64,000 nt of DNA from Lingula anatina (Eukaryota > Animalia > Brachiopoda): the NCBI GenBank assembly GCA_051362555.1, contig CM120642.1, forward strand, positions 20,770,001 through 20,834,000, given 5' to 3'. A program made the position numbers and the translations under genes. Positions 25,679 through 60,527 of this stretch are shown here, piece after piece; positions within the stretch are counted from its first letter, which is position 1; each line of letters opens with the position of its first letter. Under the pieces are notes generated by a model. The model did no database searches. It was not told the origin of the DNA and saw nothing but the letters and a program-made list of their open reading frames with translations.

Positions 25679-25711
<33 letters not shown>

Positions 25712-26568
25712 TTACCTGAACAAAGAGCCTTGGAAAAGTTGCTGGTAAAATGAGCAAGGTCATCAAATATGTTCAAGACGAAAGTATGTTCTTCTGCGGG
25801 AGCTGTGGCCATAGCTTGTAGTTCCAGGACATCTACACCTGCCCCCACACCTATAATATACAACTCGGCCCCCTTATTCTTGACGTTATCCGCCTCCCTC
25901 ACAACCCTGCACAAATCGGATGGCTTCTGCGTGGTAATAAGCACAGCAATTTTCCTGGTATTTGTGCCGTTTCGCTAAATTACTCGGATAAAGAACAACC
26001 GATCTTAAAAATAATAGGGCGAAATTTGTGCTGTTGCTTTGCAAAAACGGGTTTAGTTCTATTGTGTTGATGAAGAAGTCTAATACAGGCGTCGGATGTC
26101 TGTTATTGAGATTGATGAAAGGCTTAGGGTTATTATCAGTCGGCGAAACAGAAAATACAGCTATTTGAACGTTTTCAGGGCCCAACACAAAAGCCGTATT
26201 GACCATACTGGTAATAAATTGCTGAAGTCTTGCACTCTCATTTGCCCCACCGACCGCGTCTAACATAAAGCCAACGTCTGCATTGTCTGTCACTGAAACA
26301 AATATATTGAATTTTGAACTTGTGAATGTGACATTCATAATAATTAAGCAAATAATAACTTATCAATTAGATCAGGAAAAGTCTTTCTTGATATTGAATT
26401 ATACCAGTGGTCTTTGATCATTCTTTTATAATTATGACGGTTACTAGTGTCATTTCCCTTTTATTATAAAAGGACACAATTATACGCACCACAAATATCG
26501 TTTGCTCCTTGAGTAAAAACCAAAGGAATGACCAACAAAATCAAATACGCGTATATTGTATTACCCAT
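24449..26568 (-). pseudogene. VWA paralog 2, disrupted
   Basis: Same exon layout (26568-26490, 26292-25716, 25032-24449). An 8-bp deletion between CCGTTT repeats at ~25970 frameshifts the VWA exon. A GGA>TGA nonsense change at 24578-24580 lies just before the TM. Confidence 0.85.
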
Positions 26569-33733: not shown

Positions 33734-34602
33734 TTCACTTACCTGAACAAAGAGCCTTGGAAAAGTTGCTGGTAAAATGAACAAGGTCATCAAATGTGTT
33801 TAAGACGAAAGTATGTTCTTCTGCGGGGGCTGTGGCCATAGCTTGTAGTTCCAGGACATCTACCCCTGCCCCCACGCCTATGATATACAACTCGGCGCCC
33901 TTATTCTTGATGTTATCCGCCTCCCTCACAACCCTGCACAAATAGGATGGCTTCTGCGTGGTAATTAACACTGCAATTTTCCTGGTGTTTGTGCCGTTTG
34001 TCCGTTTCACTAAATTACCCGGATAAAGAACAACTGATTTCAAGAAAAACAGCGCCCAATATGTGCTATCATCTTTCAAATAGGGGAAAAGTGTAATTTT
34101 CGCGATGAAGAAGTCTATTAAATCGCTCGTGAGTCTGTTGTTGAGACTGAAAATTGACCGGGGCGTATTTCTAGGTGAAACAGAAAACACTGCTGTTCGT
34201 ACGTTTTCTGGACCCAACACAAATGAGGTATTTATCATACTCTTGATAAATTGCTGAAGTCTTGCAGCCTCATCTGACCATCCAATCGCGTCTAACATAA
34301 AGCCAACGTCTGCATTGTCTGTTACTGAAACAAATATATTGGATTTTGAACTTTTTAAAAAGTTTTTTCTTAAAAGATAAAATTCATCATAACCCAACAA
34401 AGAAAAATTCGTTTAGTTAGAACAAGAGTGCACTTCTTTATATTTTACAATGGTAATAATTCTATCATTTATTTATGACATTACATTTCCTTTTTAGTTT
34501 TATAAAATCAAAATTAAACATACCACAAATATCTTTTGATCCTTGAGTTAAAACCAAAGAGATGACCAACAAAATCAGATACGCATAAATTGTATTACCC
34601 AT
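32684..34602 (-). CDS. VWA paralog 3: signal peptide + VWA + stalk, TM deleted (~347 aa, predicted secreted)
   Basis: Exons 34602-34524, 34324-33743 and 33066-32684 are in frame (1044 nt). A 43-bp deletion at ~32701 removes most of the TM and shifts frame to end ..CQCNGVDGVVAWLP*. Confidence 0.75.
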
Positions 34603-39982: not shown

Positions 39983-42647
39983 TCAAGCCTCCTCAAATAC
40001 GGAAATTAAAACGTTTTCAAAGTCTCCATTTTGAACAACTGATAAAATCTTCTCCAGCCACGTGTCTATTGCTGCCTGGCCGTGGTAAAATGGCACTCCC
40101 ACCGTGTGACGTATGTACCAGTACGCTCTCTGTGAACCTAAAGGGAAATAAACCTCATACTTAGTGTGCTCAAATCAGTCAGATCAGATATCTTAGTAAT
40201 AGGTAAAGCGGCCGAAGACTCGATTCTACAAATGTTTATTTAAGCAATTCGTTAAAACGACTTTATTCAAAGACAACATCTCAAGAGTAAGCGCTCAATG
40301 CACGCAGATTTTAAAATTTGCAAAAGAGCTCACCTTTTCCTAGGCATTCAGCAGTCCCTAGATGACCGTTACACGCATCAGACATCAGTGATTTCATAGC
40401 GCCACATATCTCACTGCGGATGTCTTCTTCTTTGTGACCATTTTTAGGAATTTTCTCAGCAAACCTAGCTGCAGATTCCTCTGGGTGGAACAGGAAATCA
40501 TACCATTTGTTTTCTTTGAGAAACGTGGCAAGGAATTCCTTATGGCGTTTTCCCATTTTGTATATTGAACCCAGCACCTACAAAAGAATAACATTGACCT
40601 TCAATCAAAAACAGTCATTTGTTTTGACATTCTGGATGTGTCTTTATTGTTATCAGCTAAATATATTCCCATTTTTGTTATTTGAAAAGCTGTTTGAAAT
40701 AAAACACGCTTAAATAGGATAATTATTCTATGGTAAATTCCTCAAGCAATGTTCAATATAACTTGCTATTGGCGTATTTCTAGTTTATATGGGAATTAAA
40801 CTGCGCAAAAATAAAACGAAAATTATATTATATTTATATTGATCTTTTATGACAATGTCAATGCTTACCACATTACGCAGATATCTCAGGTCCAAGGCCT
40901 GACACAGTAGACACATATGATTGGCTAACATCATCTGTAAAATCTCTAGCGCTTCTCGAGTAAGACGAGAACTGACGAGAGCCATGGAGTTGACAGATTG
41001 GTTCTGGCATTCAGCAGAGAGCACGTGGTTGGACATTGGATTGGCCAGGTGGTCTAACTCGGACATGTACGATGCCATGGCAATATCAGCTCCTTTGAAA
41101 CCAAAATCGAGATTGATGTCTGACCCGCAGAGATTTGGCGGGAGGTCGTGGTTAATACGATGGTTGACAACTTCTTGGAATTGTGCCAATAGAAGCTTCC
41201 CACAGACCTGCAACGCTTGACGAGTTTGATCTAATGTTATTGAAAGCGTTTCACCTTGGAAATTGCCTCCATGAGCAATGGTGTCGGTGCGGTGGTCGAT
41301 GACCGGGTTGTCATTGGCACAATTCAGTTCCACGTTTATTCGCCGACACGCCTCTTTGAGAGTCTCGATCACCGGGCCTAGCCATTGTGGGGCCGTCCTT
41401 ATGCTGTAACGGTCTTGCTTCAAAGACCCGTACGTATCAGGTAGATGCATCTCTAACGTCGAAACGGCGAGTTGACTTCCGTCCAATATTTTCAACATGT
41501 TGTTGGAAACTTCTTTCAAACCGACGTGCTGAAGGCAAGTATAGTGGACAGGATGGAAACTTTCTAATTTACCTTGTAGCGCTTCTACGGCCAGCCCTGT
41601 GCAAATCTGTGTTAGCAGGACAGCAATATTGGCTTCATAAATGGTTTGAGCGGCAGTCCCAGCAGCGAAAGAGGTGGCATTGATAATGGCGAGTCCTTCT
41701 TTTGGTCCCATCACCAATGGTTCTAGATTGGCTTCTTTAAGGGCAACAGGACATGGCATGATTTGACCTCTGACCATTACGTTGATATCTTCTCTTCCGA
41801 TCATGGCTGCTGCTATATAACCCAAAGGCATCAAGTCACCACTGGCGCTGACAGAACCACGCAGAGGAACGATAGGAACGATATCGTTGTTAATCATGGC
41901 TACCAGTAACTGTACCACGTCTGGCCGTACTCCTGAGTAAGCCTTAGCGAGACAATTGGCCCTTGTAACCATCACAGCGCGCACCATGTCTGGAGGAAAT
42001 GTTCGACCCATCCCGGCATTTATAAGTCTTATAAGCGCTTGCTGAAGTTTTTCAAATTCCCATGTCCGAGTGTCGGCGCTGTTACCGAACCCTGTGCTGA
42101 CGCCATATATAACCAGCCTCTCTTCGGTGATCTTCCTTCGGAGGTATTCGGCATTTAGAGCCATTTCAATGAGGGAATGGTCAGAAGTAGACAGCCTGAT
42201 GTGCGTATTTTTGCTGCACTCGTGTACCTGGAAATTTAGATTTCATAAAGCCCTTAGAAAAATATGCTTCAAAGAACTTGTTCAGTTGAAGCTAAATGTA
42301 TATTATAAAGGGAGCATAGATTGCACTAGTGTCCCACTAAAAGATCGAAACCATTGATACCGAATAGTCATAATATAGTCTTCAAATTGAAGAAAGCGCA
42401 TAACAATTTTTTGGCTCAGAAGTTCAAGAAATGTGGAGAGGTTTGTAAAATTATTTTAAGATGTAGAGAAACGTCCCAATCCATTACGTCTGTAAATATG
42501 AAGCTGATATCTGCAAAGAAAACTAATACGTACGTGTGCAATATTCAGTGAGTTCCCATCAACCTTGAAGGTTTCTTCATCTCTGATCAGCTTTCGTTCC
42601 TGCATTAACTGTAATGTGAGACTGAGATGAGTTTTGTCCTCAGCCAT
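39983..42647 (-). CDS. MIO-dependent aromatic amino-acid ammonia-lyase, copy A (PAL-type; ~623 aa), 4 coding exons
   Basis: Exons 42647-42534, 42227-40869, 40577-40334 and 40137-39983 (phases 0,0,1; GT-AG). Motifs YGVSTGFG, LIRLINAG, GSVSASGDL (MIO ASG 41838-41846), KEGLAIIN, KQDRYSIRTAPQWLGP, NDNP, HGGNFQG, GFKGADIAMASY, SAECQNQSVNS. Confidence 0.92.
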
Positions 42648-42959
42648 TTGATGATTTCTTCCGAATGAAGTGTGTCTCTTTTTTATTCTGAATTGCGCGT
42701 TTCTCTCTTAATTCTGAAATTAGAAAATGAAATAAAAGTGAAACACGCCATGCAATTATAAAATTACAAAGCTGCAAATAGAAAATATTTTTTGATTTTT
42801 TGGTAGCTCCCGATAACTTTGCCGCGTCTAACACTTAGCATATATACAACGTCGCCTCTATTCGGTATATCTGCACTAACCTACTTCCACTCCACTTACA
42901 ACATACGTAACGTGTCTTGTTACTTCGTGCTTCACTTTTTTGTTACTATTAGCAATCGG

Positions 42960-43070
42960 AGCCTTTATATAGGGTTCGTGCAGCATGGCAAGGTCACCTT
43001 CCACTTGTCAACAGTCGTTTTTTTTTCCGCAATCCAATCTAGAGAAATACGTCACCATGCGCCTATTTTT
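42960..43070 (-). promoter_or_regulatory. TATA-box promoter of lyase A, conserved with lyase B promoter (52250-52362)
   Basis: TATATAAA on the minus strand at 42964-42971 and 52253-52260. Shared upstream blocks TTCGTGCAGC, GGTCACC.TCCACTTGTCAACAGTC and ACGTCACC.TGCGCCTATTTT. Non-coding exon donors at ~42880 and ~52176. Confidence 0.6.
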
Positions 43071-43922
43071 TAAAAGTATTTATGTTTGTCTCAAATGTCA
43101 ATAGGCGTTGTTTGTGTGACGTCTTAAGCTAACATTAATTTAAATCAAGTCCACAACTTTAACTTAATTTATCCATTGAAATATTACTTTTGTATCGGGA
43201 TCAACTGTTGCATAACATTTTGCATAATCTATAGCTTTTGAAGAATAATATTTATAAATTGATTTAGATTCTTAGACAGCATTAATACGAATTTCTAATA
43301 AAATCTGATAAATGTATACCTTAAAGCTAACTTGACAATGTCATCCTTGGACATGAAATTAAACCGTAATACGAGATTTGTACCTTTTCGTTTCGAACTT
43401 GAACTTTGCTTGCTGTACCCGTTTATTACGACATGTTATTTTTCGTGGTTAAATCTGAGTACTTATCCCCAGTTATACTACCTTATTTAATTCTCGAACG
43501 GACCCGACAATGATTTTTCTTTATACACTGCTTGTCCTTGACTTCTACGCCGGACTGAGAATAAACAGCGACAAAACCAGGATCCAAACGCTTATATTTA
43601 CCACGCCGATGTTTATCAACAAGACATATGGGGGTTCAAATAGGTTCATGGCTCATTTGAACTCTCAGGGATAGTCTTTGAAGTCAAGAACTTCTAAAAA
43701 TGTGTCACCTTCACTCGCCAGGACGTGCACTTATCATCACGTAGCAGTACCGGTATGTGCTGGTTACCAGTACACTATAACCACGGAAGTATAAACTTCC
43801 ATGCACAGTCCCCATATCAAAAACACCCCACAGTAAGGGTCTGCTGGCCATATAACGGCAGATAACTGAAGCAATTTCACAGGAACGGATGTGGTGTTCA
43901 TATATATTTACCAGTTCAGTAA

Positions 43923-43990
43923 CAGGAGCGGATTAAGGATTACTTGAAGTGGGAGAGTGGGGTTTGTCCACGGATGCGAAGCCAACGCCG

Positions 43991-44026
<36 letters not shown>

Positions 44027-44224
44027 ATTGGCATGGGATTCGGGGGCGGCCGAAAAATTTTGTGATTTTAGAGGGCGAAAGGTGCCATTTAGTACGGTTT
44101 AGAACTATGAATCAGCTAGTCAAATTCTCATTTCAAGAGGGGACCATTGGTGTTTTTTTCTTTTTCAGAAATAGAAAGGGGGGGGGGGTCAGGACTCCCC
44201 TGACACCGCCTAAATCCGCCACTG
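43923..44224. mobile_element. MITE, CAG..CTG termini, 5-bp TSD AGTAA
   Basis: CAGGAGCGGATTAAGG...AAATCCGCCACTG flanked by AGTAA; homologous to 5402-5667. Confidence 0.75.
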
Positions 44225-44695
44225 AGTAACAATGAAAATATATGGAGAAAGGGTGGGTCCGTGGACGCGAAAACACATAGTTAGGCTTGCCTTTCATCTT
44301 GGTTCCTGCATATACCTAAACAGAAAAACACTACGCTTTCTCATCTTGATTATTCTAAGCCCGCACCTTTTTTCTAAGCTCTCTTCTCCCAGTTCCAGTG
44401 TTTATGTAAATATACCATAGGTGATGTTCTTAAAGACCTTATTACACATATTTACAACTGAGATCAGGATTATTTTCAATCAATATCCCATGATTATATT
44501 TCTTATATGTTTTGTTTACAACAATATAAGTAAACAGTAAAACAGGTTATGACCGTGCCGTCAAGTACCAAGGCACTGACTAACAGCATGGAAGTGAGCC
44601 TTAGTTCATCATCCTAGGCACTGAGTATTTTATCCGGTTGTCCCGTCTGTCAGTCATTTTTCTCCAATTTGAGCAAATACATGTATATATATATA

Positions 44696-45154
44696 CTCCC
44701 CTAGCAAAAAAAGTGTCACCCCTAACATAATGCGTAAAGTGATACACAACCAATGTTCCTCATTCAACTTTTAAAAGGAATTTTTCACAAAAATTTACGG
44801 ATTGTACAACCAATGAATAAACTGACGATTGTCAAAAATCAAAGCCACATCTCAGTATTTTGTACAGCATCTTCTGGATTAGAGGGCACCACTGTCGCGT
44901 CTGTGAGGGGAGTCAAAAAGTCCTGTAACGTTTGGGCATTGATCGCGTTCCACATACGGTGCAGAGTTTGATATCATTTATTTTTTACAGAGTTATCCCT
45001 CCGTTATCCATTCCCGAGGTTATTCCACACATTCTTAATGAGGTTCTGTTCTAGGGATTTTTTTTAGCTGGCCATTGGTGGGGCGTGTTTGTTTGGGCCT
45101 GGTTCGCATATACATGTATATCGGGTTCAGGTGACACTCTTTTTGCTAGGGTAG
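44696..45154. mobile_element. Tc1/mariner-type non-autonomous element, TA TSD
   Basis: TA|CTCCCCTAGCAAAAAAAGTGTCACC ... GGTGACACTCTTTTTGCTAGGGTAG|TA. Confidence 0.75.
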
Positions 45155-45866
45155 TATGTATTTTAAGCTGAACCTGATTCAGATGCAGAATGCGGGAGTA
45201 CTTTTCTAGATGGGCTACTAGTATTTCAACATGCAGAAGTGCAGGAAATCATGATAAACGAAAAAAGTGCAAAATTGTGTCTTTACGTATGGATGCATTT
45301 TTGACACAAATTTGCAAGGGTGGTAAGCCAGCAACAGGGCTTTTTTTGTTATGACTTCATAATCGAAATCATCCCCTCCCATTTTGTGACTTTTGATCAA
45401 CGCTGTCTATACATTTATTTTAACTAAATTTGATTACGATCTGTATTCGTTCAAATAAAGATGAGGAATTGTCTGTAATGGTTTTATTACATATATAGTT
45501 TTAATTTTCTGAATGGCTAAAAATCTTGTTTATGCTAGGGATTCATTATATACAGAAAATGGAATGATTGTATTAGGTGTGAAGTTTGGTTGCGACGATT
45601 GCCCAAAACTGAATTTTCATATGTGCTTGCTTTAATATTCCAGCCACTTAATTCATATTGTTCCTCTTTCTCGTTGATCTCAGGGTCAAATGCTTAAAAG
45701 TGGAGTCAGCACGTTTTTATCATTTACCAGATTTTCCTTCATATATAATTTGCTACATGTATAATGTTCATTATAAATGACATGTAAATTATCATACAGT
45801 ACCGTATGAACGACACGCTCAACCGTTCTTCTTCTTCTGTTTTATTGAAAAAAATATATGATATAT

Positions 45867-46190
45867 CAGGGGTGGATCCAGGATTATTTGAAGGGGGTGG
45901 GGTCCGGTTTTTCAGGAATGACAAGCCTCGGATGCGAAGCCGACCCTCGCCCCCTCCTCCACCCCCCTTGACGTGGGGTTCAGGACCCGTTGAAGAGTAC
46001 TGGAAAATTTTGGTATTTTAGAGGGCGAACGGTGCCATTTGCTAGAACTACATGTATGATAAAGCTAGAACTATGGTTAAGCTAGTCGAAATTCTAATAT
46101 CAAGAGAGGAGCATTTGTGTGATTTATTTTTCAGAAACCGAAAGGGGGGGGGGGGGGTAGGACACCTACCTCCCCCTTAACCCGCCACTG
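45867..46190. mobile_element. MITE of the same family as 5402 and 43923
   Basis: CAGGGGTGGATCCAGGATTATTTGAAGG...TTAACCCGCCACTG with shared interior. Confidence 0.7.
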
Positions 46191-47221
46191 CTTAGACTGA
46201 GAGTTTTGCCTGTGCTGCGATCTCGGCCTCATTGTGACGGCTAGCACAAAATTCATGCGTTGTACTGGTTGTGCTTAAGCACGGCAGGAAAGGTCTCAAA
46301 AAGTGTTAACTTTCGACCAGTTTGCGCTCCCACACAAAAAAAAAACCCAGCCCGTCCCCTCCTGTGTTGACGCGAAAAAAAAAGTGGGTTGGGGGCTTTT
46401 AAAACACCATTCATTTTATAGCCTTGTACTAAAAATCCGTTGCCTTGGGCAGCCGTATGTGTGTGAGGAGGGGGGCTTCCCCCAATATATTTTGAATTAA
46501 GCCACTGATGTTGTGATTTTGTCATGTAAACCAAATATTGGTCTTCAAAATGGAAGATAGACTGCCTTGTATCAATAAAATTAACAAACCTAGGCTGGAC
46601 TAGTCTCTATAGTAGACAGCGAATGGACTATTGCTCTCTACAAAAATTGCTCCGTTCATGAGAAGACGCGTTACTGTCTACCATTAAAAACCCAGTTCAA
46701 TATAAAATAGAACGACTTTTTATATCAACCCTGTGTCAATTTTTGATTCCCCATCGAGTAAATTCTGAATCATTCTTACGTATATAGAGATTAAAATAGA
46801 TTAAAATAAATGAAGAGAGAGAGAGGTTGAACAATAAGAACGGAACTATTATATACGGCATTTCGGTACTGAGTTTACTTGTGAATGGAAATCAGGGCTT
46901 TAAGCTTACTTTTACTTAAAAGTAACCTAAAAGTTAGCTCAGTATCCGTGGGTATTTCTAAGGGCAAATTCGGGACAAAGGAGGCCAAGATATGAAGTGG
47001 CCTCGTACCCGTTTCCTCTGTTTACACCCCTTTGACTTTTCTGCTGACAAACCGACTTTTCTCGTCCTGAACTCAAAACTATGGAAGATTTTTACCTAAT
47101 CCGTCTCTTTAGTTGTGTTATTGAAAATGTATACAAATACCGTGTCCATATAAAAGTATTATAAAATAAATGAAATAGTTGTTATTGCATACAGATATCA
47201 CACCTTGTAATGTATATTATA

Positions 47222-48882
47222 CAGACTTGACATTTAATATGGAATATTTTTTCCAAATCATTTTTCATCAGTTTTTTCCCTATTTTACTGACTGATAAAT
47301 GAAAATAAGGATTAAAATCGTGTTCTAATAACTTTTAATTATCTCTTTGATGTCATTGTGACATCAGTTCGTTAATGGAATTAGCCAGAGAAGCAAACAA
47401 AAACACATTGCCTTTTCTACGTCATACGGCAACCATTAAATGAGATATTTTAGATCTCCATATTTTCCAAATTATTGTCTGTAAAAGAGTTACACGCTCC
47501 ACAAATGACCCTCATGTCAGTGTCTAGTCACAGTAACAGTCGCTGTTACGCCTGACCTCTTCTGGCTGCTACCAGCGCTCTCAAGCGGCAAGGCATTCCT
47601 TGGGATATGTTTTTAGAGTTCAATCTGGAATAACATTCCAGGCATCGGTCGAAATCTGTCCAATTTGGCCCAGTTTTGTTGTAGGACATGTAGGCCATTC
47701 ATTTGGCGAGTAATGGCCTACCCACATATTGTCTACGTGGTTCAAATATGGCGGTTTTGATGACCAAGGTAGCTGTTCATTCCCTTGGTTCTCTAAGTAA
47801 TCTGTTATTAAAAGTGCTCTGTGTGAACCGGCAATCCCACCCTACAACCTAAAATTGTTCTTAAGGTGCCCCCTATCAAATGATAGTCAAGTGGTTCCCA
47901 GATTATTCCTTTATTTAATCTGGTTCAGGTTTTCGTCGATGACTGCCATTGGTGTTTTGGCACCAATGTGGTATCCACTTCAAATACTGACGCTGTTAAT
48001 GACCTAAGTCACTTTAGAGGCGGCACACACTTCGTCGTTGGCCTCTTCTGGATGTCTGTAAACTCTGTTTTGACTAGTTGAGCGGTACAGGTTAAATCTG
48101 ACCTCAATAAAGAAAGCCACGAGGTTTCAGTGTTCAACCCAGAAACGGTCATGGTCCCTAATTCATTAGAGAAACATACAACGATGTTTTGCTGTTTACA
48201 GTGGGTTCCTCGGAGGTCGTCTGGTATGCTAACCTGCAAAAACCAGTTTGGTGTTCGCTAAGGGCCTTGAAAAATGCGTTTTGGTGGCAATTTACCCCCC
48301 ATTCTGAACGGACTGGGTGGTTTTTGTTTAGTTGCAACGGCATATCCTGAAAGACAGTGGGTCCTGTACTCTGGTGGTAAGATTTTAATACATTGGGTGT
48401 GGCCTCTATGTAGGTACATCAGGCTGGGCATTATTCTATAAAACTGTGCGGACCGTTTCGTTTGGCGCAATTAACTGACTGGCAATGTCTGTCTTTTTCG
48501 CGCCATTTTGCCACAGATTAACAAACTTGCAAAGCACTGCATAGCTCATTTTACACACTGCAAAACCGACCACTTGCATGCAAAATTTCAAATTCTTCTA
48601 TGCAGTAGTTGCCGACATATGGATACTTTTTTGACAGAACCGTGCTTTGCCAAAGCCAAGCCTTGACCTGCCCAAAGGAGCACTACCCAATTAAATTACA
48701 TCATATTACATAATGCAGCAGCGTAACAAACCTGATATTCAGTTAATTGGAAGCGACACACCTGACTACACACTTCTCCATTCACATATCTTATATGAGA
48801 TATTAGTTTTTTGAAAAAAGAACGCATTTCTACCTAGGCACACCTTCGAAACTGAAATATTCCATATTAAATGTCAAGTCTG
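47222..48882 (-). mobile_element. Full-length but decayed Tc1-like transposon (1.66 kb)
   Basis: Perfect 28-bp TIRs CAGACTTGACATTTAATATGGAATATTT with TA TSD. Minus-strand remnants HRALLITDYLENQGNEQLPWSSKPPYLNHVDNMW and GMPCRLRALVAARRG. The empty site is visible in the paralogous flank at ~39499. Confidence 0.9.
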
Positions 48883-49226
48883 TATGATGAATTACTGGCC
48901 TCACTTAAAAACTGACTTAATGCAACATGTCCCATTTCTAATGGAAATATAACATAAATAATAACCTGCAAAAAATTAATTATGGTGTAGAGGTATAACG
49001 TAATCTAAAGAGCCACAATATACCCGTTCTAAATAAAATTTTAAATGCGTAATTAAAACATACTTCCAATTTCCTACTCAAGCGCATGCTTTTCGGAAAG
49101 AGAATCCCTGTCATATATATTTAGTGGAGATCATATAAATATATATATTCCGAAAAATAACATACAAAATAAGTGCAATGAATTACAAAATAAATGCATA
49201 TTAATGTTCATTGCATAATTTGAAAA

Positions 49227-49890
49227 TCAAGCCTCCTCAAATACGGAAATTAAAACGTTTTCAAAGGCTCCATTTTGAACAACTGATAAAATCTTCTCCA
49301 GCCACGTATCAATTGCTGCCTGGCCGTGGTAAAATGGCACTCCCACCGTGTGACGTATGTACCAGTACGCTCTCTGTGAACCTAAAATAAAATAAACTAC
49401 AACTTAACTGTGATCAAATCATTCAGATCAGATACAGGCTAGGTATCTTAGTAATAGGTAAAGCGGCCGAAGACTCGATTCTATTAATTTTTATTTAAGC
49501 AATTCGTTAAAACGTCTTTATTTGAAGACAACGTCTCAAGATCAAACGCTCAATATACGCCAATTTCAAAAATTGCAATATAAAACAGCTCACCTTTTCC
49601 TAGGCAGTCAGCAGTCCCTAAATGACCGTTACACGCATCAGACATCAGTGATTTCATAGCGCCACATATTTCACTGCGGATGTCTTCTTCTTTGTGACCA
49701 TTTTTAGGAATTTTCTCAGCAAACCTAGCTGCAGATTCCTCTGGGTTGAAAAGGAAATCATACCATTTGTTTTCTTTGAGAAAAGAGGCAAGGAATTCCT
49801 TATGGGGTTTCCCCATTTTGTCAATTGTCATCAGTACCTAAAAAAGATAAAAATGAGTTTCAGCTCAAATTGATACAATTTTTATTTTGT

Positions 49891-49929
<39 letters not shown>

Positions 49930-51928
49930 TTTGCAGCCAGGAAGTGTCTGTTTTGAAACTAAATGTATTCGCAATGTTGTAATTAGAGTGCGATTTGAAT
50001 AAAATATGGAAGGAATAATTATTCTACTATATTGCTTAAACAATAATTTATATAACTTGCTATTGTATTTCAAGTTTGGATAGAAAAATTTTTCTAAATA
50101 AAATTTCGCAAAAAAAAAAAAGAAAATAATAACAATATATGTATTCATGCTAACCTTATTACGCAGATATCTCAGGTCCAAGGCCTGACATAGTAAACAC
50201 AAATGATTGGCTAGCATCATCTGTAATATCTCCAGCGCTTCTCGAGTAAGACGAGAACTGACGAGAGCCATGGAGTTGACAGATTGGTTCTGGCATTCAG
50301 CAGAGAGCACGTGGTTGGACATTGGGTTGGCCAGGTGATCTAACTCTGACATGTACGATGCCATGGCAGTATCAGCTCCTTTGAAACCAAAATCGAGATT
50401 GATGTCTGATCCGCAGAGATTTGGCGGAAGGTCGTGGTTAATGCGATGGTTGACAATTTCTTGGAATTGTGCCAAAAGGAGCTTTCCACAGACTTGCAAC
50501 GCTTGACGAGTTTGATCTAATGTTATTGAAAGCGTTTCTCCTTGGAAATTGCCTCCATGAGCAATAGTGTCGGTGCGGTGGTCGATGACTGGGTTGTCAT
50601 TGGCACAATTCAGTTCCACGTTTATTCGTCGACAGGCCTCTTTGAGAGTCTCGATCACCGGGCCTAACCATTGTGGGGCCGTCCTTATGCTGTAACGGTC
50701 TTGCTTCAAAGACCCGTATGTATCAGGTAGATGCATCTCTAACGTCGAGACGGCGAGTTGACTTCCGTCCAATATTTTCAACATGTTGTTAGAAACTTCT
50801 TTCAAACCGACGTGCTGAAGGCAAGTATGGTGGACTGGATGGAAACTTTCCAATTTACCTTGTAGTGCTTCTACGGCCAGCCCTGTGCAAATCTGTGTTA
50901 GAAGGACAGCAATGTTGGCTTCATAAATGGTTTGAGCGGCGGTACCAGCAGCGAAAGAGGTGGCATTGATAATGGCGAGTCCTTCTTTTGGTCCCATCAC
51001 CAATGGTTCTAGATTGGCTTCTTTAAGGGCAACGGGACATGGCATGATTTGACCTCTAACCATTACGTTGATATCTTCTCTTCCGATCATGGCTGCTGCT
51101 ATATAACCCAAAGGCATCAAGTCACCACTGGCGCTGACAGATCCACGCAGAGGAACGATAGGAACGATATCGTTATTAATCATGGCTACCAGTAACTGTA
51201 CCACGTCTGGACGTACTCCTGAGTAAGCCTTAGCGAGACAATTGGCCCTTGTGACCATCACTGCGCGCACCATGTCTGGAGGAAAGGTTCGACCCATCCC
51301 GGCATTGATGTGTTGTATCAAAGCTTTCTGCAACTTTTCTAACTCCAGAGTGCGGGTATCAGCGCTGTTTCCAAACCCTGTGTTGATACCGTATATAACC
51401 AACCTATCTTCGGTCACTTTCTTTCGAAGATACTCGGCATTTTGAGCCATTTCATTCAGGGAATGGTCAGAAATGGACAGCTTGATGTGCGTATTTTTGC
51501 TGCTCTCATGTACCTGTAAAGAGAGGTGATCGTCATAAGGTCCCAAGAATAATATCTCTCAAAATTATTGCATTTGAGACTCAATGTGAACATTAAAAAT
51601 AGATGGATTTACATTAAAAAGCAAAAGTACACGCACGCACGCACGCACTCACACACACAGTTTCAAGGTTGAATATTCTCAATTCTGGAAATGCCACAGA
51701 TCAATATGTTAGAAATGACGAGCTGTTTCATTATGTGGATAAAAGTGCCAATTCAATATACACAGGGCAGGTTAATATCTAGCTGATAACTGCAAAGAAA
51801 ACTAATGTACGTACGTGTGCAATATTCAGCCCTTTCCCGTCAACTGTGAAGGTTTCTTCATCTCTGATCAGCTTTCGCTCCTGCATTAACTGTAATGTGA
51901 GACTGAGATGAGTTTTGTCCTCACCCAT
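49227..51928 (-). CDS. MIO-dependent aromatic amino-acid ammonia-lyase, copy B (TAL/PTAL-type His switch; ~623 aa)
   Basis: Exons 51928-51815, 51513-50155, 49837-49594 and 49381-49227, with the same lengths as copy A. LIQHINAG, ASG at 51124-51132, KGADTAMASY. Confidence 0.92.
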
Positions 51929-52423
51929 TTTGATATTTTCTTCCGTATGGCGTGTGCTTCTTATTTTTTTCTGTATTGCTTGTGTTTCTTTCTTTATTCT
52001 GAAATAGGAAAATGAAAGAAAAGTTAGACACACCATGTCATTTCCAACTACAGTAAACTAAGCAACTGCAGTATCTGCAAAAAGAAAATATTAAAAGCAA
52101 AAAATTCACCGCGTTGACTCTGCTATGTGTAATTATGTAGCATATTGTAGCCTCTATTCGGTATATCTGTACTTACCTGTTTCCACTCACAGTACGTTAC
52201 GTGTCGTGTTACCTCGTGTTTCACTTTTTTGTAACTGTTAATAATCAGAGCTTTTATATAGTGTTCGTGCAGCCTCGCCAGGTCACCATCCACTTGTCAA
52301 CAGTCATTTATTTTCGAAATGCGTCACACGGGTAGCGTCCTAACGTCACCCTGCGCCTATTTTGGTGAAACTTAGCCCTATTAGCCAGAGATGTCAACAG
52401 GTTGTTTGTCGGCATAAACAAGT

Positions 52424-52580
52424 CAGGGGCGGATTTAGGCCGTCTTCTGGGTTTTCCGGAAGACGGTCAGATTTTCAAGTTTAATTCTAATTTTTCTGTC
52501 GGAAGACGGTCAAAAGTGGAGGATGGATCAATAAAGATAATTCGGAAGCCTGTCAGAAAATATCTCTGGATCCGCCCCTG
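52424..52580. mobile_element. MITE inserted in lyase B upstream region
   Basis: CAGGGGCGGAT...ATCCGCCCCTG with CAAGT/CAAGC flanks. It is absent at the homologous site upstream of copy A (~43146). Confidence 0.8.
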
Positions 52581-55500
52581 CAAGCACATAACTTAAGCTA
52601 ATTTTATCCACTGAAATATTACTTTAATATCCGGACGAGCTCTCGCATGACAATTTTGAGCTTTTGAAGAGTGACATATCTAAATTGGTTTAAATTCTTA
52701 AATAGCATTTACATTGGAAAAAATCTACTAAATGTATACTTTTTGATAACTTGAAGCAGTTTACATTGATATTAACCTCGAAATTAAACCGTAAGCTAAC
52801 CATTATATACCTGTCCGTTATGAATCAGGACTTTATTCGCTAGGCGCATATATTACTATTATTTTCCGTCGTATGAATCTAGGTATGGAAGTTTTGGAAG
52901 GAAAGCTTTGGTAGGAAAGTTTTATTGTGCACAGCTTGTCATCGGGTATTATGCTAAAATATCGGGACTGTGAATATACAAAATTATTTTTTCCTGATGT
53001 ACACGTAGAATGGGGACATACCTCTTTTGAACATTAAAGGATAGTCTTTGATGTCAAGAACTACAAAAAATGTCACATTCGCCCACACCCCCAGTAACGA
53101 TCTCCACGACGTATAACGACAGAGATCTAGACCTTTTACGATTTCACTGGAACGGCTAGAATTTCCGTATGTTCAGTAAGAATGAAAATAAATATACAGT
53201 AGAGAAGATGGATCCATCGAAAGGAATTGGAATATACCGGTACAGATTTGCTTGCCTCCACCTTTTCTTCTTGCTTCCTAAATAGGCCTGTATAAAAACC
53301 GAAAACACATTCTGTGCCCCCACTTCCGGATAATTCTACCTCCACTCCTCTCCTCCCCCAGTCATCAGTCATTTATTATGTGAGTATAGGTGAAGTTCGC
53401 AAAGAGCAAGTACACATATTTACAAAGAATTGTTTTTTATTAAGCACCATCCCCTGATTACATTTGTTTACACTAAGAGACGTAAAAAACACGCCGTTTA
53501 TCCAGTATCAGGGCATTTAAGAGTCTCTACGTTCCTTTTTGGGGTAAGTGTTGTTATTTGTCGACCTGGTTTTGAGTCATTATGAAGTCATTTTGAGTCA
53601 TTATGTAGAGGGCAGTTTTGGCAGGACAAATCAGTCGCAGTCTCCTTCAAAACTTCACTAAGGAGAAGCACTTACTGCTGATGTGGACGTACTGTAACTG
53701 TAAATGCGACTTTTGTACGGCTTAAACCTTATTTTAAATTGAAAGTAAATGAAGGAAAATTCTCTTGTGATGAATCAAAAATAAAACAAACGTATTTTAA
53801 GCGTATTTATTATTTAATTTTTCTTACCTTATTCAGATGAACTAGTGGAAACGAGCTCTTATAGAAATAACAATTAAAAGATATGAATCTGCGAAAATAA
53901 CTCACAGGCCCTGTGTCAAAAGAAACTAAGTAATATTAACAGTAGGATGTCCTTTGGAAAAAGGTGCTAGGACTATATTGCAGGAAATGTGTTTCTAAGT
54001 ACGAAATTGGTAAAATTCAAGAAATATTCGCACATGCATAGAAGTTTTGAACTTTCAAAGGAAAGCTCCATACCTTCCTCTGTTAGGCAGTCTTTGCATT
54101 TTTAAAATCTGAAAAGACGTCAAACATAAGGGATGGAACTTCCCTGTGGCACCGCCGAATAAAATACACATAACCGCAGTTTTTCAAACTTATTTTTAAC
54201 TAACCTCAATAACAATAATAAAAACTGCGATGACTTATATATTTTTCCACAGCTGCAAATAATGCCCTTGAAATGTGAGTGTGACGCACGGATTCAGCTT
54301 TCAAATTGTACTAGGGCATTGGTCAAATATGAATATAAAAGCATAAACACCAAATACCAGTACAATCTAATGGAAAACAAAAGGCATATCTAATAATGGT
54401 TTACAAAAATCGTATTCGCTTTGCCAGAATTCTGCTAACCTGATTTTATTCAAATCCCCACAATGGAGGGTGAAAGGTGAAGAACATTGGGCTGTAGAAT
54501 TTTAGACCCGCACATTTATGATTTATTGAAGACTTATCATGAGTTATGTATGGCATTTATTCTGCGTTAAAAATATATTTTTATCTGAAGAGGTCGTGTC
54601 CCTCCACCACAACAGGCACATTAATTATTCTGTCAAAAAATTGTTACCAAATACTAGTATGACCGCTGTAAAATATTGTACCGTGCAACGGCGAGCCTAA
54701 CACGGAGGAATTTTACTATACTAGGGGAGTTGGTGGATCGACATAAATCCAATCAAATCATCATTGGCTGTATATTAAAACAAACGACATCTGTGTGCAC
54801 AAGTCACAGTCTACCTCAAACTCATACGAGTGTCTCGAAAACTTCTAGATTTATTTCTGGATACCTGCTACTTGGTCTCAGCATTTACAGTAAATTACTG
54901 TAACCCTGGTTGGTTACTTATTTTTATGAGAGCGACGGCTTGGAATCACACAACAACTTCAGATGTGGTTCATGACGATTTTATTCCTCATACACGGTCT
55001 ACAGTCTGGCACGCAGGCAGGGTCTGTCTCGTCGATCTCCCGGGGTCTCTCTCTCACTAACTGAGAAGCCATCATTTTATAGGGAATCGTTCTAAGTCCT
55101 GCGTGCCCAATAACTATTACTAAATGTGTGTAATTTATAGGAATAATAAAGGAACTAAAGGTAACATACGTGATTAATAGGAAGTATGAGAAAACTAAAT
55201 ACAGGGACTATATTACATTCCATAGTAGCCCTGAACACGGATATGTTCTCCGGGTAGGAAGGTTACATAACGCTCGGACCTGGGAATGGCCTCAACTGAA
55301 ATTTCCCCAGGTGTAGTGACTGTTTTTGGTGGAAGAGATCAAAAGAGCGAAATGACTATAATGAGGCCAAAGTATTTCTACAATTTTAGAGTCGGCACCG
55401 GGTTTCCATTTTCTGTCATCTGAAAGGGGTGTATCTTCAATTACTTAAATAAATTACTCTACTGAGATTTTTGTTTCTAATTTTACATACAGAGGGGCAT

Positions 55501-57497
55501 TCTAAGTTGGCATGATGAATAACAATAAAATGGTAGATGATTACGAAAAGATAACAAAGATTCTAAGCTTATGTGATGTATGATGTGTCAAAATATTTCT
55601 TGAGATTTTAGAGAAGCACTGATACATCACAAAGGGGGTAAGGTAATATTGGACGTGACAAATTACAGTGTGCCTGAGTATAAATGTAACCTAAGAACTT
55701 GAATGCCATTTATTTTATGTTAACAAACTTTATACACTCCATATATTTTTGAAACCCAGAGAAGTTACAAATCTACTGTTACAAACAAAATGCCACTATA
55801 TGTAGCTCTACTGGCAAATATTTTATTATTTGAATATGCTATGAGGAGATGCTCCAAATGTGCTCCTTTCTGCTAAAGACACTCTTCTTTTCTACGGGCG
55901 AAGTTGTCGATGACTTTGATGTACTTTTCCTTTGAAATAGCTCCGATTTCTTGAGTGATTGCTGCTCTGGGATGTTCCTGTAGATTCAATCCGTCAGAAT
56001 AAAATTTGGAGGTTGAGGACGGGGAGTGGGGGGGGGGGGATTCTTAATAAATTATTCATGGGCATGGACTTGGGTTCAGGAGCTAAAAGGTGCAAAAAGG
56101 GTTTAGACGGGGTATCGGCAAGATGAGGATACCCTTCATACAGCAAAAGTTTCTCTGGAGTGGCTGGACCAGAAGTTTCTTAACCGACTCATCAACTGTA
56201 AACAGGAACCTGAGTGGTCTCCGCATTCATCGACCTCACCTCCACCCCCAAGGGACGCGTTGTTTGTTTCCGTATATTTACTAATTTCTCTAGTTTTTAG
56301 AAATACGTGGGCTGTATATAGTCTGTAAACAGCAAATAAATGCTGATCACGTTCTTGGGTTACATTTGTTCTTGGACAATCGGTGAGATTATGCAGTGAG
56401 AGACCATAGCCAGTTACAGAGGACATAATCTAAATTAACATCAAATTATATTCTAGTAAGGCTTGACATGAAAAGTAAATCATGTATATTTAATCATGTT
56501 AGCGTGTCTTTTTCTTTTATTGAATTTCAACATGCAACTGGAGTATATTTATTTACATAAGATCGTAAAATGATAACTATAATAATGTAATGATCATGAC
56601 ACCTGTCCCTACTAGCCGTTAAATTAAAAGTTGAAGGAAGATGTTCTGTTAAATGTATTTTCTTGTTCTACATCTGTAACCATGACCAGAATCCGGCTAT
56701 TCCTAAGGGGTGTGGGGCACAATGTTAATTTTTTCCCTATCTTCTTGTTGGGAATTACAAAGTTGTTTTAACATGAGGATAATGATGTTGTAAGGGCACA
56801 ATGAAGAAAAAGTGCTTGGTTTTATCTCGCTTTGGTGCTTATACTGTTTTTTTTTGGGGGGGGGGGACAGGGGTGAAGGCTATTTTTAAAGGTGAGGGAG
56901 GGGGCATTGCTCGAGCTTGAACCGTAAAAAAACACTTAACTCTGTGGTGGGCTTGGCCAGTAGGTCACATGTATCACGCACTTTCGCGATTTTCAATTCT
57001 TGCATTGTCTCATGCCTGCCTATTACGAAACGTTATAGATTGTTTAAAAGCATACCAGTCATTTTCCGATTTGGTAGCAAGGTTGCAAAATTGATTTTTG
57101 CTGTTTTGATATACATGTATTATTTTAACCCAGTGATGCGAATTTGAGGACCGTCCCAATATTTGCAATTTTTTCATGATCTCTTCTTAGCTGTTGGACG
57201 TCAATTGGTGAATCTGAGAGAAAACAGAGGCTTGGTTTTGCAGTCCGTATACTAATTTATTTAAAATTATAAGTCACGCGGGGTCAATGCCACGCACTTC
57301 ATTCTCAGCGAGTTTCAGTACATATTTGATATTTCCCCTCACTTTATTCACTGTGTATATGCACGTGCATAGGTGTGTGTGTGTGTGTGTTAATTCAGCA
57401 ATAAGATAACGTCAGAATGATACGTCAACAAAATAATACATAAGGTCCAGTCAACATGGTCAAGATAGATAGGCCTCTGTATTCAATTAATATCAGT

Positions 57498-57615
57498 CAC
57501 GTGCACTGACCATATATAATGAAGGTGCGCAGCCCACGAAGGACACAAATGCATTCAAACAAGAAGACTGAACCAGAAGCGAAATAATCCGGAGTGTGCT
57601 AAAACTGAGGTGAGT
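57498..57615 (+). promoter_or_regulatory. Putative promoter and non-coding first exon of lyase C
   Basis: CACGTG at 57498, TATATAA at 57513-57519, donor GAG|GTGAGT at 57610 and acceptor TTTTTCAG at 57846 ahead of the ATG. Confidence 0.5.
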
Positions 57616-57896
57616 GAAGCTAAAACAAGTCTGTTAAAAGGTAACAGTCGACCCCGCGTGTGCTTAATGAAAGAGAAATAAGATAGGAAGAGAAATGAAA
57701 TACGTTTTAGATACTTAAAGTAATGCCAGATCTTAGTAAAAACCGTTGTTGACCATGAATGGTACTTCTCGTAAGTCTGTTCTCTCTCCCTCTCATGTCC
57801 CTGGCCCGCAAACGCTCACACTCAATGATCATTTTGTCCTTTTCAGCAGTAAGGATCAGCAGTATATAATAGTGCTCTGACACTCCTGAAAACATA

Positions 57897-60527
57897 ATGA
57901 TGTCGGACGACACAACTCATATCAGACTCACAGTGGAATTAATGCAGAAGAGAAAATTGCTCAAGAACGCTGAAAAAGTTACTATAGACGGCAGTTGCCT
58001 CAACCTCGCACAAGTAAATTATTTACCGTATGATTTCAGCAGTTTATTAAATACTATAAATAGCTTATAAAATGTAAATTGTATCAAAAAATGTCTTCGA
58101 ATGTCTGTAATGCTTAAAATCTTAAAAGCTTTTATTTTCCAAGTCGTAAGTGATACAAGTATATGTATTAGGATCAAATTACGAACACCCCTGTGTACAT
58201 TATATCTTTAAATATTTTATTGTTAAATAATCGCCATTTTGGATAATATGGAGAATTTTGTTACGGACAGGTGGTTGAATGCAGTAATAGCACAAACATA
58301 AAGTTGGAAATCTCTGAACAGGCCGTAGATGAAATGGCGTTGAACGCTAAATATCTTAAAAGGAAAATCACAGAGGAAAAGCTCGTCATATACGGTATAA
58401 ATACAGGGTTTGGAAACAGCGCTGATACCCGCACTCTGGAGTTAGAAAAGTTGCAGAAAGCTTTGATACAACACATCAATGCCGGGATGGGTCGAACCTT
58501 TCCTCCAGACATGGTGCGCGCAGTGATGGTCACAAGGGCCAATTGTCTCGCTAAGGCTTACTCAGGAGTACGACCAGACGTGGTACAGTTACTGGTAGCC
58601 ATGATTAATAACGATATCGTTCCTATCGTTCCTCTGCGTGGTTCTGTCAGCGCCAGTGGTGACTTGATGCCTTTGGGTTATATAGCAGCAGCCATGATCG
58701 GAAGAGAAGATATCAACGTAATGGTCAGAGGTCAAATCATGCCATGTCCTGTTGCTCTTAAAGAAGCCAATCTAGAACCATTGGTGATGGGACCAAAAGA
58801 AGGACTCGCCATTATCAATGCCACCTCCTTCGCTGCTGGTACCGCCGCTCAAACCATTTATGAAGCCAACATTGCTGTCCTTCTAACACAGATTTGCACA
58901 GGGCTGGCCGTAGAAGCACTACAAGGTAAAATGGAAAGTTTCCATCCAGTCCACCATGCTTGCCTTCAGCACGTCGGTTTGAAAGAAGTTTCCAACAACA
59001 TGTTAAAAATATTGGACGGAAGTCGACTCGCCGTTTCGACGTTAGAGATGCATCTACCTGATACGTACGGGTCTTTGAAACAAGACCGCTACAGCATAAG
59101 GACGGCCCCACAATGGCTAGGCCCGGTGATCGAGACTCTCAAAGAGGCCTGTCGACGAATAAACGTGGAACTGAATTGTGCCAATGACAACCCGGTCATC
59201 GACCACCGCACCGACACCATTGCTCATGGAGGCAATTTTCAAGGAGAAACGCTTTCAATAACATTAGATCAAACTCGCCAAGCACTGCAGGTCTGTGGGA
59301 AGCTTCTATTGGCACAATTGCAAGAAATCGTCAACCATCGCATTAACCACGACCTTCCGCCAAATCTCTGCGGATCAGACGTCAATCTCGATTTTGGTTT
59401 CAAAGGAGCTGATACTGCCATGGCATCGTACATGTCAGAGTTAGATCACCTGGCCAATCCAATGTCCAACCACGTGCTCTCTGCTGAATGCCAGAATCAA
59501 TCTGTCAACTCCATGGCTCTCGTCAGTTCTCGTCTTACTCGAGAAGCGCTGGAGATATTACAGATGATGCTAGCGAATCATTTGTGTTTACTGTGTCAGG
59601 CCTTGGACCTGAGATATCTGCGTAATGAGGTAAGCATTTACCACATACTGAACACGTGTTGTTTAAAAAACATTATTTCGCGAAAGATAGCATCCCAGTC
59701 GCGCTAGAAAAAAATACTGGAATGTATGGCAAGTTGTTTTTATCATCATATAAACAAACTGAAGTAAAAGAACGTGTTACATTTAAAATCGCTTCTCCAG
59801 TTACATAAATGTGAATTCATGTTCGATAACAAGATAGACACATCCAGAATATCAAAACAATCTAAATGAAAAAGAAAATCGGAACTATTCTGCATTGAAA
59901 GCGAATGTTATCTTTTTAGGTAATAAGTTCAATGCGCAAAATGGGGAAACGCCAAAAGGAATTCCTTGCCACGTTCCTTAAAGAAAACAAATGGTATGAT
60001 TTCCTGTTCCACCCAGAGGAATCTGCAGCTAAGTTTGCGGAGAAAATTCCTAAAAATGGTCACAAAGAAGAAGACATCCGAAATGAGATATGTGTCGCTA
60101 TGAAATCACTGATGTCTGATGCGTGTAATGGTCATTTAGGGACTGTTGATTGTCTAGGAACAGGTAGGCTGCTTTTATTTTATTTTATTTTGATAATTGA
60201 ACATTTTAAAATTAAGACCGTTATGAGGAATAATTATGGTTAAAGGAAGTCCTGACAAAAATCATAATTCAAAATTAAGTTGAAGTGCTTACTACTGCTT
60301 ACGACTTTAAATCTTTAAAGGATCAAATTATTAGTTATTTCAGCACACTTAAAATAGACTTTTTTCGTATAGGAACGAAGAAGGCGTACTGGTACATACG
60401 TCACACGGTGGGAGTGCCATTTTACCACGGCCAGGCAGCAATTGACACGTGGCTGGAGAAGATTTTATCAGCTGTTCAAAATGGAGACTTTGAAAACGTT
60501 TTATTATCTGCCTTTGAAGAGCCTTGA
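57897..60527 (+). CDS. MIO-dependent aromatic amino-acid ammonia-lyase, copy C (TAL/PTAL-type His switch; ~624 aa)
   Basis: Exons 57897-58013, 58271-59629, 59920-60163 and 60373-60527, with the same intron positions as A and B. LIQHINAG, ASG at 58652-58660, KGADTAMASY. Confidence 0.92.

Follow-up and report, generated by a model that had tools for sequence, protein, structure and literature searches.

Phenylalanine ammonia-lyase (PAL), like tyrosine ammonia-lyase (TAL), is assigned by textbooks to plants, fungi and some bacteria. We describe here three adjacent, intact genes of this kind (copies A, B and C) from a brachiopod, Lingula anatina. They lie in a window of 64,000 nucleotides, the whole stretch of DNA that was analyzed (contig CM120642.1 of GenBank assembly GCA_051362555.1, positions 20,770,001 to 20,834,000); all coordinates below are those of the window. 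The encoded proteins are members of the family of aromatic amino acid ammonia-lyases and aminomutases that depend on 4-methylideneimidazole-5-one (MIO). From their pocket residues we propose, with moderate confidence, that the three genes are split by ring preference, copies B and C accepting tyrosine and copy A favoring phenylalanine.

The closest described systems include plant enzymes, and most of the sources cited here (bioRxiv 10.1101/2024.11.06.622220, PMC7355458, PMC9226071 and PMC9002059) are represented by excerpts. All graminid phenylalanine/tyrosine ammonia-lyases (PTALs) are marked by a histidine at a position called the switch (His140 in those enzymes). The substitution F140H lowers the Km for tyrosine and is insufficient alone; together with S112I, at the residue before the catalytic tyrosine, it turns even Arabidopsis PAL1 into a PTAL, and exchanges of His and Phe in plant enzymes shift the Km for tyrosine at least 10-fold (bioRxiv 10.1101/2024.11.06.622220). 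Para substituents of the ring are handled by F137 and I460 in the numbering of parsley PAL (PcPAL); positions 137 and 138 vary, and I460 is otherwise highly conserved (PMC9226071). Saturation mutagenesis of PcPAL yielded I460T, which raises kcat/KM for p-methoxy-phenylalanine from 0.007 to 0.617 x10^-3 s^-1 uM^-1, about 88-fold, and leaves the efficiency with phenylalanine unchanged from wild type (6.3 in both) (PMC7355458). Smaller or polar residues at 460 admit meta and para substituents (PMC9226071, PMC7355458). Plant tyrosine aminomutases, which include enzymes first taken for PALs, are marked by Tyr at the switch and by an Asn that replaces the Lys of FKGA (PMC13586772).

Our literature searches for an animal PAL or TAL found nothing relevant, and animal PAL goes unmentioned in the excerpt of PMC9002059. 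Nothing useful came of a search for how bacterial switch motifs are classified.

Three intact lyase genes in an animal genome

The window has a G+C content of about 36-43% and few long open reading frames of the bacterial style. It contains three long open stretches, each about 460-540 codons in length, with matches to the lyase domain PF00221 (Pfam). Each belongs to an intact gene of four exons with a complete coding sequence, and 9/9 introns run GT..AG:

39983..42647, minus strand: copy A; exons 42534-42647, 40869-42227, 40334-40577 and 39983-40137 (including the stop codon); 623 aa; Leu/Ile type
49227..51928, minus strand: copy B; exons 51815-51928, 50155-51513, 49594-49837 and 49227-49381; 623 aa; His/Thr type
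57897..60527, plus strand: copy C; exons 57897-58013, 58271-59629, 59920-60163 and 60373-60527; 624 aa; His/Thr type

A tblastn search of the window found no fourth copy. Each copy has a counterpart among public L. anatina proteins, whose names are automatic. Exon 2 of B matches a "phenylalanine ammonia-lyase 2-like" protein at 100% over the exon, and the same protein is 99% identical to copy B at full length; P0002 is identical to copy C over residues 120-624, and P0003 is 98.5% identical to copy A.

The PF00221 matches cover positions of about 13-450 of the 466 in the profile, with E-values of 9e-137 (copy A), 9e-141 and 2e-142. The catalytic apparatus is present throughout. All three copies have the triad ASG, from which MIO is predicted to form (ASGD at residue 166, or 167 in C, aligned with parsley ASGD). 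They also have the catalytic tyrosine in IYG at residue 78 (aligned with parsley Y110) and QDRYSIR at residue 309 (aligned with parsley Q348/Y351/R354), and they keep NDNP, GGNFQG, FKGAD with its Lys, and SAExxNQ. Among solved structures, the best match by sequence is parsley PAL (6f6t/1w27; phmmer, E 8e-108). An AlphaFold 2 (AF2) model of a B-like public protein (predicted local distance difference test score 92, predicted template modeling score 0.93) superposes in Foldseek on Taxus phenylalanine aminomutase, parsley PAL and sorghum PAL, with template modeling (TM) scores of 0.87-0.88 over about 640-680 aligned columns. The eukaryotic PAL fold, including its C-terminal helical part, is thus predicted for these proteins.

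Two neighboring families fit less well. Histidine ammonia-lyases (HALs) have Ser-His as their switch motif. The motif here is L-I or H-I, and solved HALs match with E-values of 1e-50 to 1e-54, versus 1e-108 for PAL. The plant-type tyrosine aminomutases (OsTAM1/ZmTAM1) differ from all three copies, which have Leu or His at the switch and Lys in FKGAD.

Two candidate answers to what these genes might be other than animal lyases were rejected. Contamination is ruled out by the spliceosomal introns, by animal-type neighbors (exons with VWA and HEPN_DZIP3 domains) and by homologs on chromosome-scale contigs of bivalves. Copy A as a pseudogene is ruled out by its open frame, by the low ratio of nonsynonymous to synonymous divergence (dN/dS) in its core (0.04-0.08) and by spliced RNA.

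Copy A differs from B and C in the predicted aromatic pocket

Two positions, called here site 1 (the switch) and site 2, set copy A apart, and a third, the residue before the catalytic tyrosine, is shared:

42024..42026, minus strand: site 1 in copy A, Leu106 (codon CTT), at the position of parsley PAL F137 in the alignment
41082..41084, minus strand: site 2 in copy A, Ile420 (codon ATT), at the position of parsley PAL I460 in the alignment
51310..51312, minus strand: site 1 in copy B, His106 (CAC), from codon mapping and alignment
50368..50370, minus strand: site 2 in copy B, Thr420 (ACT), from codon mapping
58472..58474, plus strand: site 1 in copy C, His107 (CAC), from codon mapping
59414..59416, plus strand: site 2 in copy C, Thr421 (ACT), from codon mapping
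42108..42110, minus strand: Ile78 preceding the catalytic Tyr79 in copy A, aligned with parsley S109 and grass PTAL Ile112
51394-51396, minus strand: the same Ile in copy B (I-Y-G)
58388-58390, plus strand: the same Ile in copy C (I-Y-G)

The surrounding motifs read LIRLINAG and KGADIAM in A, and LIQHINAGM and KGADTAM in both B and C. Codon mapping reproduced exactly the coordinates and residues that the preliminary description had given for both sites. Its alignment of the sites with parsley Phe137 and Ile460 also holds: parsley positions, counted from the printed numbering of the phmmer alignment to 6f6t/1w27, place them on F137 and I460. The equivalence of site 1 to His89 of Rhodobacter sphaeroides TAL (RsTAL) is taken from excerpts of the literature rather than from an alignment of our own (bioRxiv 10.1101/2024.11.06.622220, PMC9002059). 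The view that a small residue at the Ile460 position admits para-substituted rings is backed by the I460T data (PMC7355458).

The copies had been described as having nearly identical cores, and their DNA is indeed 97-98% identical over codons 76-453 of exon 2. There, A is unlike both B and C at only four residues (Y267H, V391I, I420T and M476L), one of which is site 2. The equivalents of L134, L138, L256 and V259 are identical across the three copies. As judged by alignment, sites 1 and 2 are the sole known ring-pocket positions that differ among the copies, and homology to parsley PAL together with published work predicts that both line the aromatic pocket.

By these motifs, B and C carry both of the determinants of plant PTALs, His at the switch (H106 and H107) and Ile before the catalytic Tyr, whereas A (L106) carries only the Ile; parsley has S109 there. 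A canonical PAL has Phe-Leu at 137-138; the residues there are Leu-Ile in A and His-Ile in the other two copies. It also has Ile at 460, which is found in A and is replaced by Thr in B and C. Copy A thus appears PAL-like through its hydrophobic pocket and is not a canonical PAL by motif. The claim that A prefers phenylalanine and that B and C accept tyrosine is partly supported: B and C show the complete signature of tyrosine-accepting lyases, which A lacks, and in A a Leu stands where canonical PALs have Phe.

We postulate that in B and C the His at the switch, the Thr in the para-pocket and the Ile before the catalytic Tyr would together bind the 4-hydroxyl of tyrosine, and that these enzymes would make p-coumarate. 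In A, Leu and Ile would form a purely hydrophobic pocket, likely favoring phenylalanine.

Gene conversion probably carried the His codon between copies

The genes are mosaics. In alignments of non-coding DNA (flanks, introns and 3' untranslated region) the identity of A to B is 0.6-0.97 and that of either to C mostly about 0.3-0.6, and thus A and B are the younger pair. Exon 2 is itself a mosaic. Its codons 1-38 hold 32 sites at which C stands apart, against 7 for A and 7 for B. At about nt 120 of exon 2 the pattern flips, and over nt 123-207, in counts made for codons 39-75, A stands apart at 27 sites, B at 0 and C at 3. Within this block A and B differ at 17 of 23.7 synonymous sites (synonymous divergence, dS, of 2.4, which is saturated), and the dS of B and C is 0.09. 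The dense block ends 3 nt past the switch codon, which occupies nt 202-204 of exon 2. From codon 76 on, the three copies are alike (dS 0.11-0.17), and the dN/dS of 0.04-0.08 indicates that all copies are under constraint. The block was located by site patterns and dS:

51307..51391, minus strand: C-like block in copy B (nt 123-207 of exon 2, 85 nt), far from A
42021..42105, minus strand: the same block in copy A, not homogenized, which holds the Leu codon

The block in B is likely a tract of gene conversion from C to B that brought the His into B. The simplest reading of these patterns is that the core was homogenized among all copies and that A kept its own old Leu block. We suggest that the lineage of A and B was originally of the Leu type and C of the His type, that conversion moved the His block into B, and that selection would shield the block around the switch codon against the homogenization that affects the rest of the core. 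Alternatively, a further, fourth paralog might have given A its divergent block. An independent origin of His in B is not supported, since B carries the C-like converted block.

P0003 differs from copy A of the window at 7/475 residues, and several of its states are C-like (Met259, Arg290 and Glu491). These states point to continuing exchange among the paralogs across haplotypes.

The two sites covary among animal homologs

A homolog search with exon 2 of B (453/623 residues) placed, among the best 120 matches, named proteins from bivalves (seven genera) and annelids (five genera), 48-72% identical, together with many unnamed entries. Fungal and plant PALs came next, at 42-49%. Only three Lingula proteins are among these 120 matches, and one bivalve protein among them covers just 54% of the query. 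A quick maximum-likelihood tree was built from 88/123 rows, after removal of the three public Lingula proteins, of rows shorter than 440 aa and of all but eight fungal or plant rows. In it the animal-like rows form one group (Shimodaira-Hasegawa-like approximate likelihood ratio test, SH-aLRT, 100), within which A, B and C cluster together. The animal-like clade stands beside fungal PALs with plants outside, in a tree that is arbitrarily rooted, and its named members are a brachiopod, bivalves and annelids only.

Both sites could be scored in 75 animal-like homologs. Written as site 1/site 2, the combinations are H/T in 28 rows, H/I in 11, H/V in 6, L/I in 14, L/L in 4, L/T in 1, F/I in 5, V/I in 2, and S/I, S/V, T/I and A/T in 1 row each. 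Thr is paired with His in 28/30 of the rows that have it and occurs in only 2/30 of the rows without His. Across 78 family rows, no scored column shares more mutual information with the His/non-His state than that of site 2. The switch changes state at least 20 times on the quick tree. In 16 independent pairs, Thr goes with His in 8-9, goes the opposite way in 1 and shows no difference in 6-7 (sign test, p 0.02-0.04). The two-site pattern is more than chance, and site 2 is to be read as a modulator that varies, not as an invariant partner of His.

Fitch parsimony places His at the root of the animal-like clade, where site 2 is ambiguous; the Leu in A is thus derived. The likely polarity is that a His type gave rise to a Leu type, opposite to the order in grasses. 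The preliminary description had seen a PAL-to-TAL split convergent with grasses; parsimony instead gives a change from a TAL-like to a hydrophobic pocket.

On a wider scale, we raise tentatively the possibility that lophotrochozoan animals (brachiopods, bivalves and annelids) own an uncharacterized PAL/TAL clade of plant- or fungus-like enzymes that toggles repeatedly between a polar pocket of His with Thr and a hydrophobic one of Leu or Phe with Ile. In Lingula the corresponding cassette would have been passed between the tandem paralogs by conversion, with selection protecting the switch codon, and these animals may make their own acids of the cinnamate, coumarate or caffeate type.

Both types of transcript are found in RNA

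Raw reads came from four runs (X4, X5, X7 and X8) under the same species label. Copies A and B are expressed and spliced. The three junctions of A are spanned in X7 by 11, 17 and 16 reads. The middle one is displaced by 2 nt, consistent with a GTG>GAG variant that is also in P0003. The junctions of B are spanned in X4 by 10, 4 and 13 reads, and its middle junction in X7 by 40. In reads mapped on C alone, where reads of all paralogs are counted and those of A and B fill the shared core, reads with the A-type Leu codon appear as loose ends at 58478 (21 in X7 and 13 in X8), and B-type 5' sequences appear in X7 and X8 as loose ends at 58388. Runs X7 and X8 contain transcripts of the Leu type as well as of the His type. 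Most reads of these two runs are only 95-99% like the window and thus come from a divergent population or lineage.

Joints between exon 4 of A and exon 3 of B, and the reverse, were considered as trans-splicing and rejected as mapping ambiguity between near-identical exons.

Some reads bear on transcripts outside these gene models. At the junction of exons 3 and 4 of C (60145-60384), 29 letters match none of A, B or C exactly (60 reads in X7 and 29 in X8); this third junction type is either a divergent allele of C or a further paralog in the X7/X8 animals. Other reads join 47219 to 48883 (9 in X4 and 23 in X7), and there is coverage just downstream of the stop codon of B (48788-49191), which suggests either that the 3' untranslated region of B is spliced or that a separate transcript lies between the two genes A and B.

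Weighing a split in ring preference

Several points weigh against the proposed split. The first concerns copy A. It has Leu instead of the Phe of PALs, and our literature searches found no data on a natural Leu at the switch; that A prefers phenylalanine is an inference. Copy A also has rare residues at two near-invariant columns, N82S and H267Y. Residue 82, two residues after the catalytic Tyr-Gly, is Asn in 75/77 family rows and Ser in A alone, and residue 267 is His in the great majority (58) of the scored family rows and Tyr in A. These changes could mean a different function for A rather than simple use of phenylalanine.

The second concerns what His does. His alone is insufficient in plants, where further residues tune the Km (bioRxiv 10.1101/2024.11.06.622220, in excerpt). 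Enzymes of the His type may still use phenylalanine, as grass PTALs do, so that B and C would perhaps be bifunctional rather than tyrosine-specific. Literature searches found no assayed enzyme of the animal clade.

The third concerns site 2. Ile or Val stands there in 17/45 His rows, and judged by these rows Thr is not needed for the His type. Site 2 of B (50369 G>A) is Thr in X4 (0/23 reads with the change) and Ile (ATT) in X7 (35/35), where A-like synonymous states are found nearby. With reads of all paralogs mapped on C, site 2 (59415 C>T) is Thr in X4 (0/14) and X5 (0/61) and Ile in X7 (62/62) and X8 (74/75). The His type carries Ile at site 2 in the X7/X8 animals. Gene conversion makes paralogs look like sisters, and the count of at least 20 switches may overstate their independence. 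Lastly, segments specific to C have a depth of 0 in X4 and X5, so that expression of C was not seen in those runs; in X7 the C-specific depth is about 0.6-0.7 over exon 1 and likewise in the first bin of exon 2.

One rival reading has no functional split, the copies having similar, broad profiles for phenylalanine and tyrosine and the two differences being tolerated variation that gene conversion has yet to erase. We consider this unlikely, although site 2 varies under one species label (Thr in X4/X5 and Ile in X7/X8), H/I and H/V are common in the family, PcPAL I460T keeps the wild-type efficiency with phenylalanine (PMC7355458, in excerpt), and only two or three residues are involved. However, site 1 lies in a synonymously saturated block that has stayed unhomogenized right up to the codon, the divergent animals of X7 and X8 keep Leu-type and His-type transcripts too, and no column of the protein covaries better than that of site 2. 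Moreover, the exchange of His and Phe alters the Km for tyrosine at least 10-fold in plant enzymes (bioRxiv 10.1101/2024.11.06.622220, in excerpt).

Another reading, which we think improbable, is that the substrates of the His/Thr copies have a more decorated ring, such as 3,4-dihydroxyphenylalanine (DOPA) or a halogenated tyrosine, with Thr giving a second polar contact or more room beside His and a caffeate-like product being made. Bivalves and tube worms are notable for their DOPA chemistry, and nearly all Thr rows of the clade also have His (28/30). In the excerpts of studies on other enzymes, the Ile460 position is otherwise highly conserved, and a smaller or polar residue in its place lets in meta and para substituents (PMC9226071, PMC7355458). 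The contact of Thr with a 3-substituent is conjectural, however, and Ile replaces Thr in His-type transcripts of other animals.

That some or all copies are 2,3-aminomutases making beta-tyrosine or beta-phenylalanine is very unlikely. In its favor, Taxus phenylalanine aminomutase is among the best Foldseek matches (TM 0.87), two tube-worm homologs carry the source label aminomutase and plant "PALs" have proved to be tyrosine aminomutases (PMC13586772), but those labels are automatic, both markers of the plant mutases are absent (PMC13586772), and lyases and mutases are otherwise indistinguishable by sequence.

A split in which B and C accept tyrosine and A favors phenylalanine remains the reading that we prefer.

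Other features of the window

Neighboring open stretches contain a HEPN_DZIP3 match (E 1e-17) and three von Willebrand factor A (VWA) domains (E 1e-8 to 3e-13), and look like exons of ordinary animal genes:

14111-14842, 18759-19391, 25660-25974 and 33738-34412, minus strand: open stretches with HEPN_DZIP3 or VWA domain matches

Among the 31 longest open stretches of the window that were scanned, none was seen to encode a phenylpropanoid-type partner enzyme. Between A and B, long homopolymer runs of G or C (poly-Gly or poly-Pro if translated) lie at 43908-44229 and 45739-46021, and reads break or turn back there. These stretches are probably a repeated mobile element in two orientations.

Implications

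An animal has three intact copies of the PAL/TAL type, of which at least two are expressed and spliced correctly, with named relatives in bivalves and annelids. New here are the mosaic genes, the probably converted His block, the covariation of the two sites and His as the ancestor by parsimony. If the split is real, animals would offer a second, independent natural experiment on the two pocket residues that set PAL versus TAL specificity. Its polarity would be opposite to that of grasses, and it would have a natural Thr that engineers reached only through saturation mutagenesis. The locus would also be a clean case of gene conversion carrying a specificity determinant between paralogs amid an otherwise homogenized gene. 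Metabolites derived from cinnamate or coumarate would then be worth seeking in these animals' shells, tubes, byssus or defense chemistry. If these animals make acids of the cinnamate, coumarate or caffeate type, they would have an endogenous entry into phenylpropanoid-like chemistry. The Lingula enzymes could also serve as new scaffolds for biocatalysts.

Comparison with known systems

Taxus phenylalanine aminomutase is the top structural match (TM 0.87). The Taxus enzyme is a mutase, however, and nothing in this analysis indicates mutase chemistry in Lingula. RsTAL shares with B and C the switch His that is a recognized determinant of tyrosine use, according to excerpts of bioRxiv 10.1101/2024.11.06.622220 and PMC9002059. 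It is far more distant (E 9e-48 to exon 2 of A) and of the short bacterial type (521 aa). The fungal PAL/TALs of the Rhodotorula/Rhodosporidium type (His137-Gln138) are eukaryotic and have His at the switch, and fungal rows read LIQH as do B and C. In contrast to B and C, fungal rows keep Ile at site 2 (30/37 fungal or plant-like rows are H/I) and have Gln or His after the switch, and the animal-like clade is a group separate from them (SH-aLRT 100).

Parsley PAL, with its engineered variants I460T, I460V and F137V, has the same pocket positions, and the natural Thr of B and C equals the engineered I460T (PMC7355458, in excerpt). In Lingula, however, the Thr is natural and paired with His, and the proteins have 623 aa, versus 716 aa in the solved parsley chain.

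The tandem PAL/PTAL pairs of grasses and other graminids (sorghum, Brachypodium and Joinvillea) are likewise tandem eukaryotic MIO lyases that differ at the F137/F140 switch. His together with Ile before the catalytic Tyr gives tyrosine use in the grass PTALs (bioRxiv 10.1101/2024.11.06.622220, in excerpt), and both residues are in Lingula B and C. The Lingula genes differ from the grass pair in their identity of only about 44%, in their animal host, in the Leu rather than Phe of the non-His copy and in having the Ile in all copies. Furthermore, in Lingula His is likely ancestral, site 2 (Thr) differs as well, and the His block was probably moved between copies by gene conversion.

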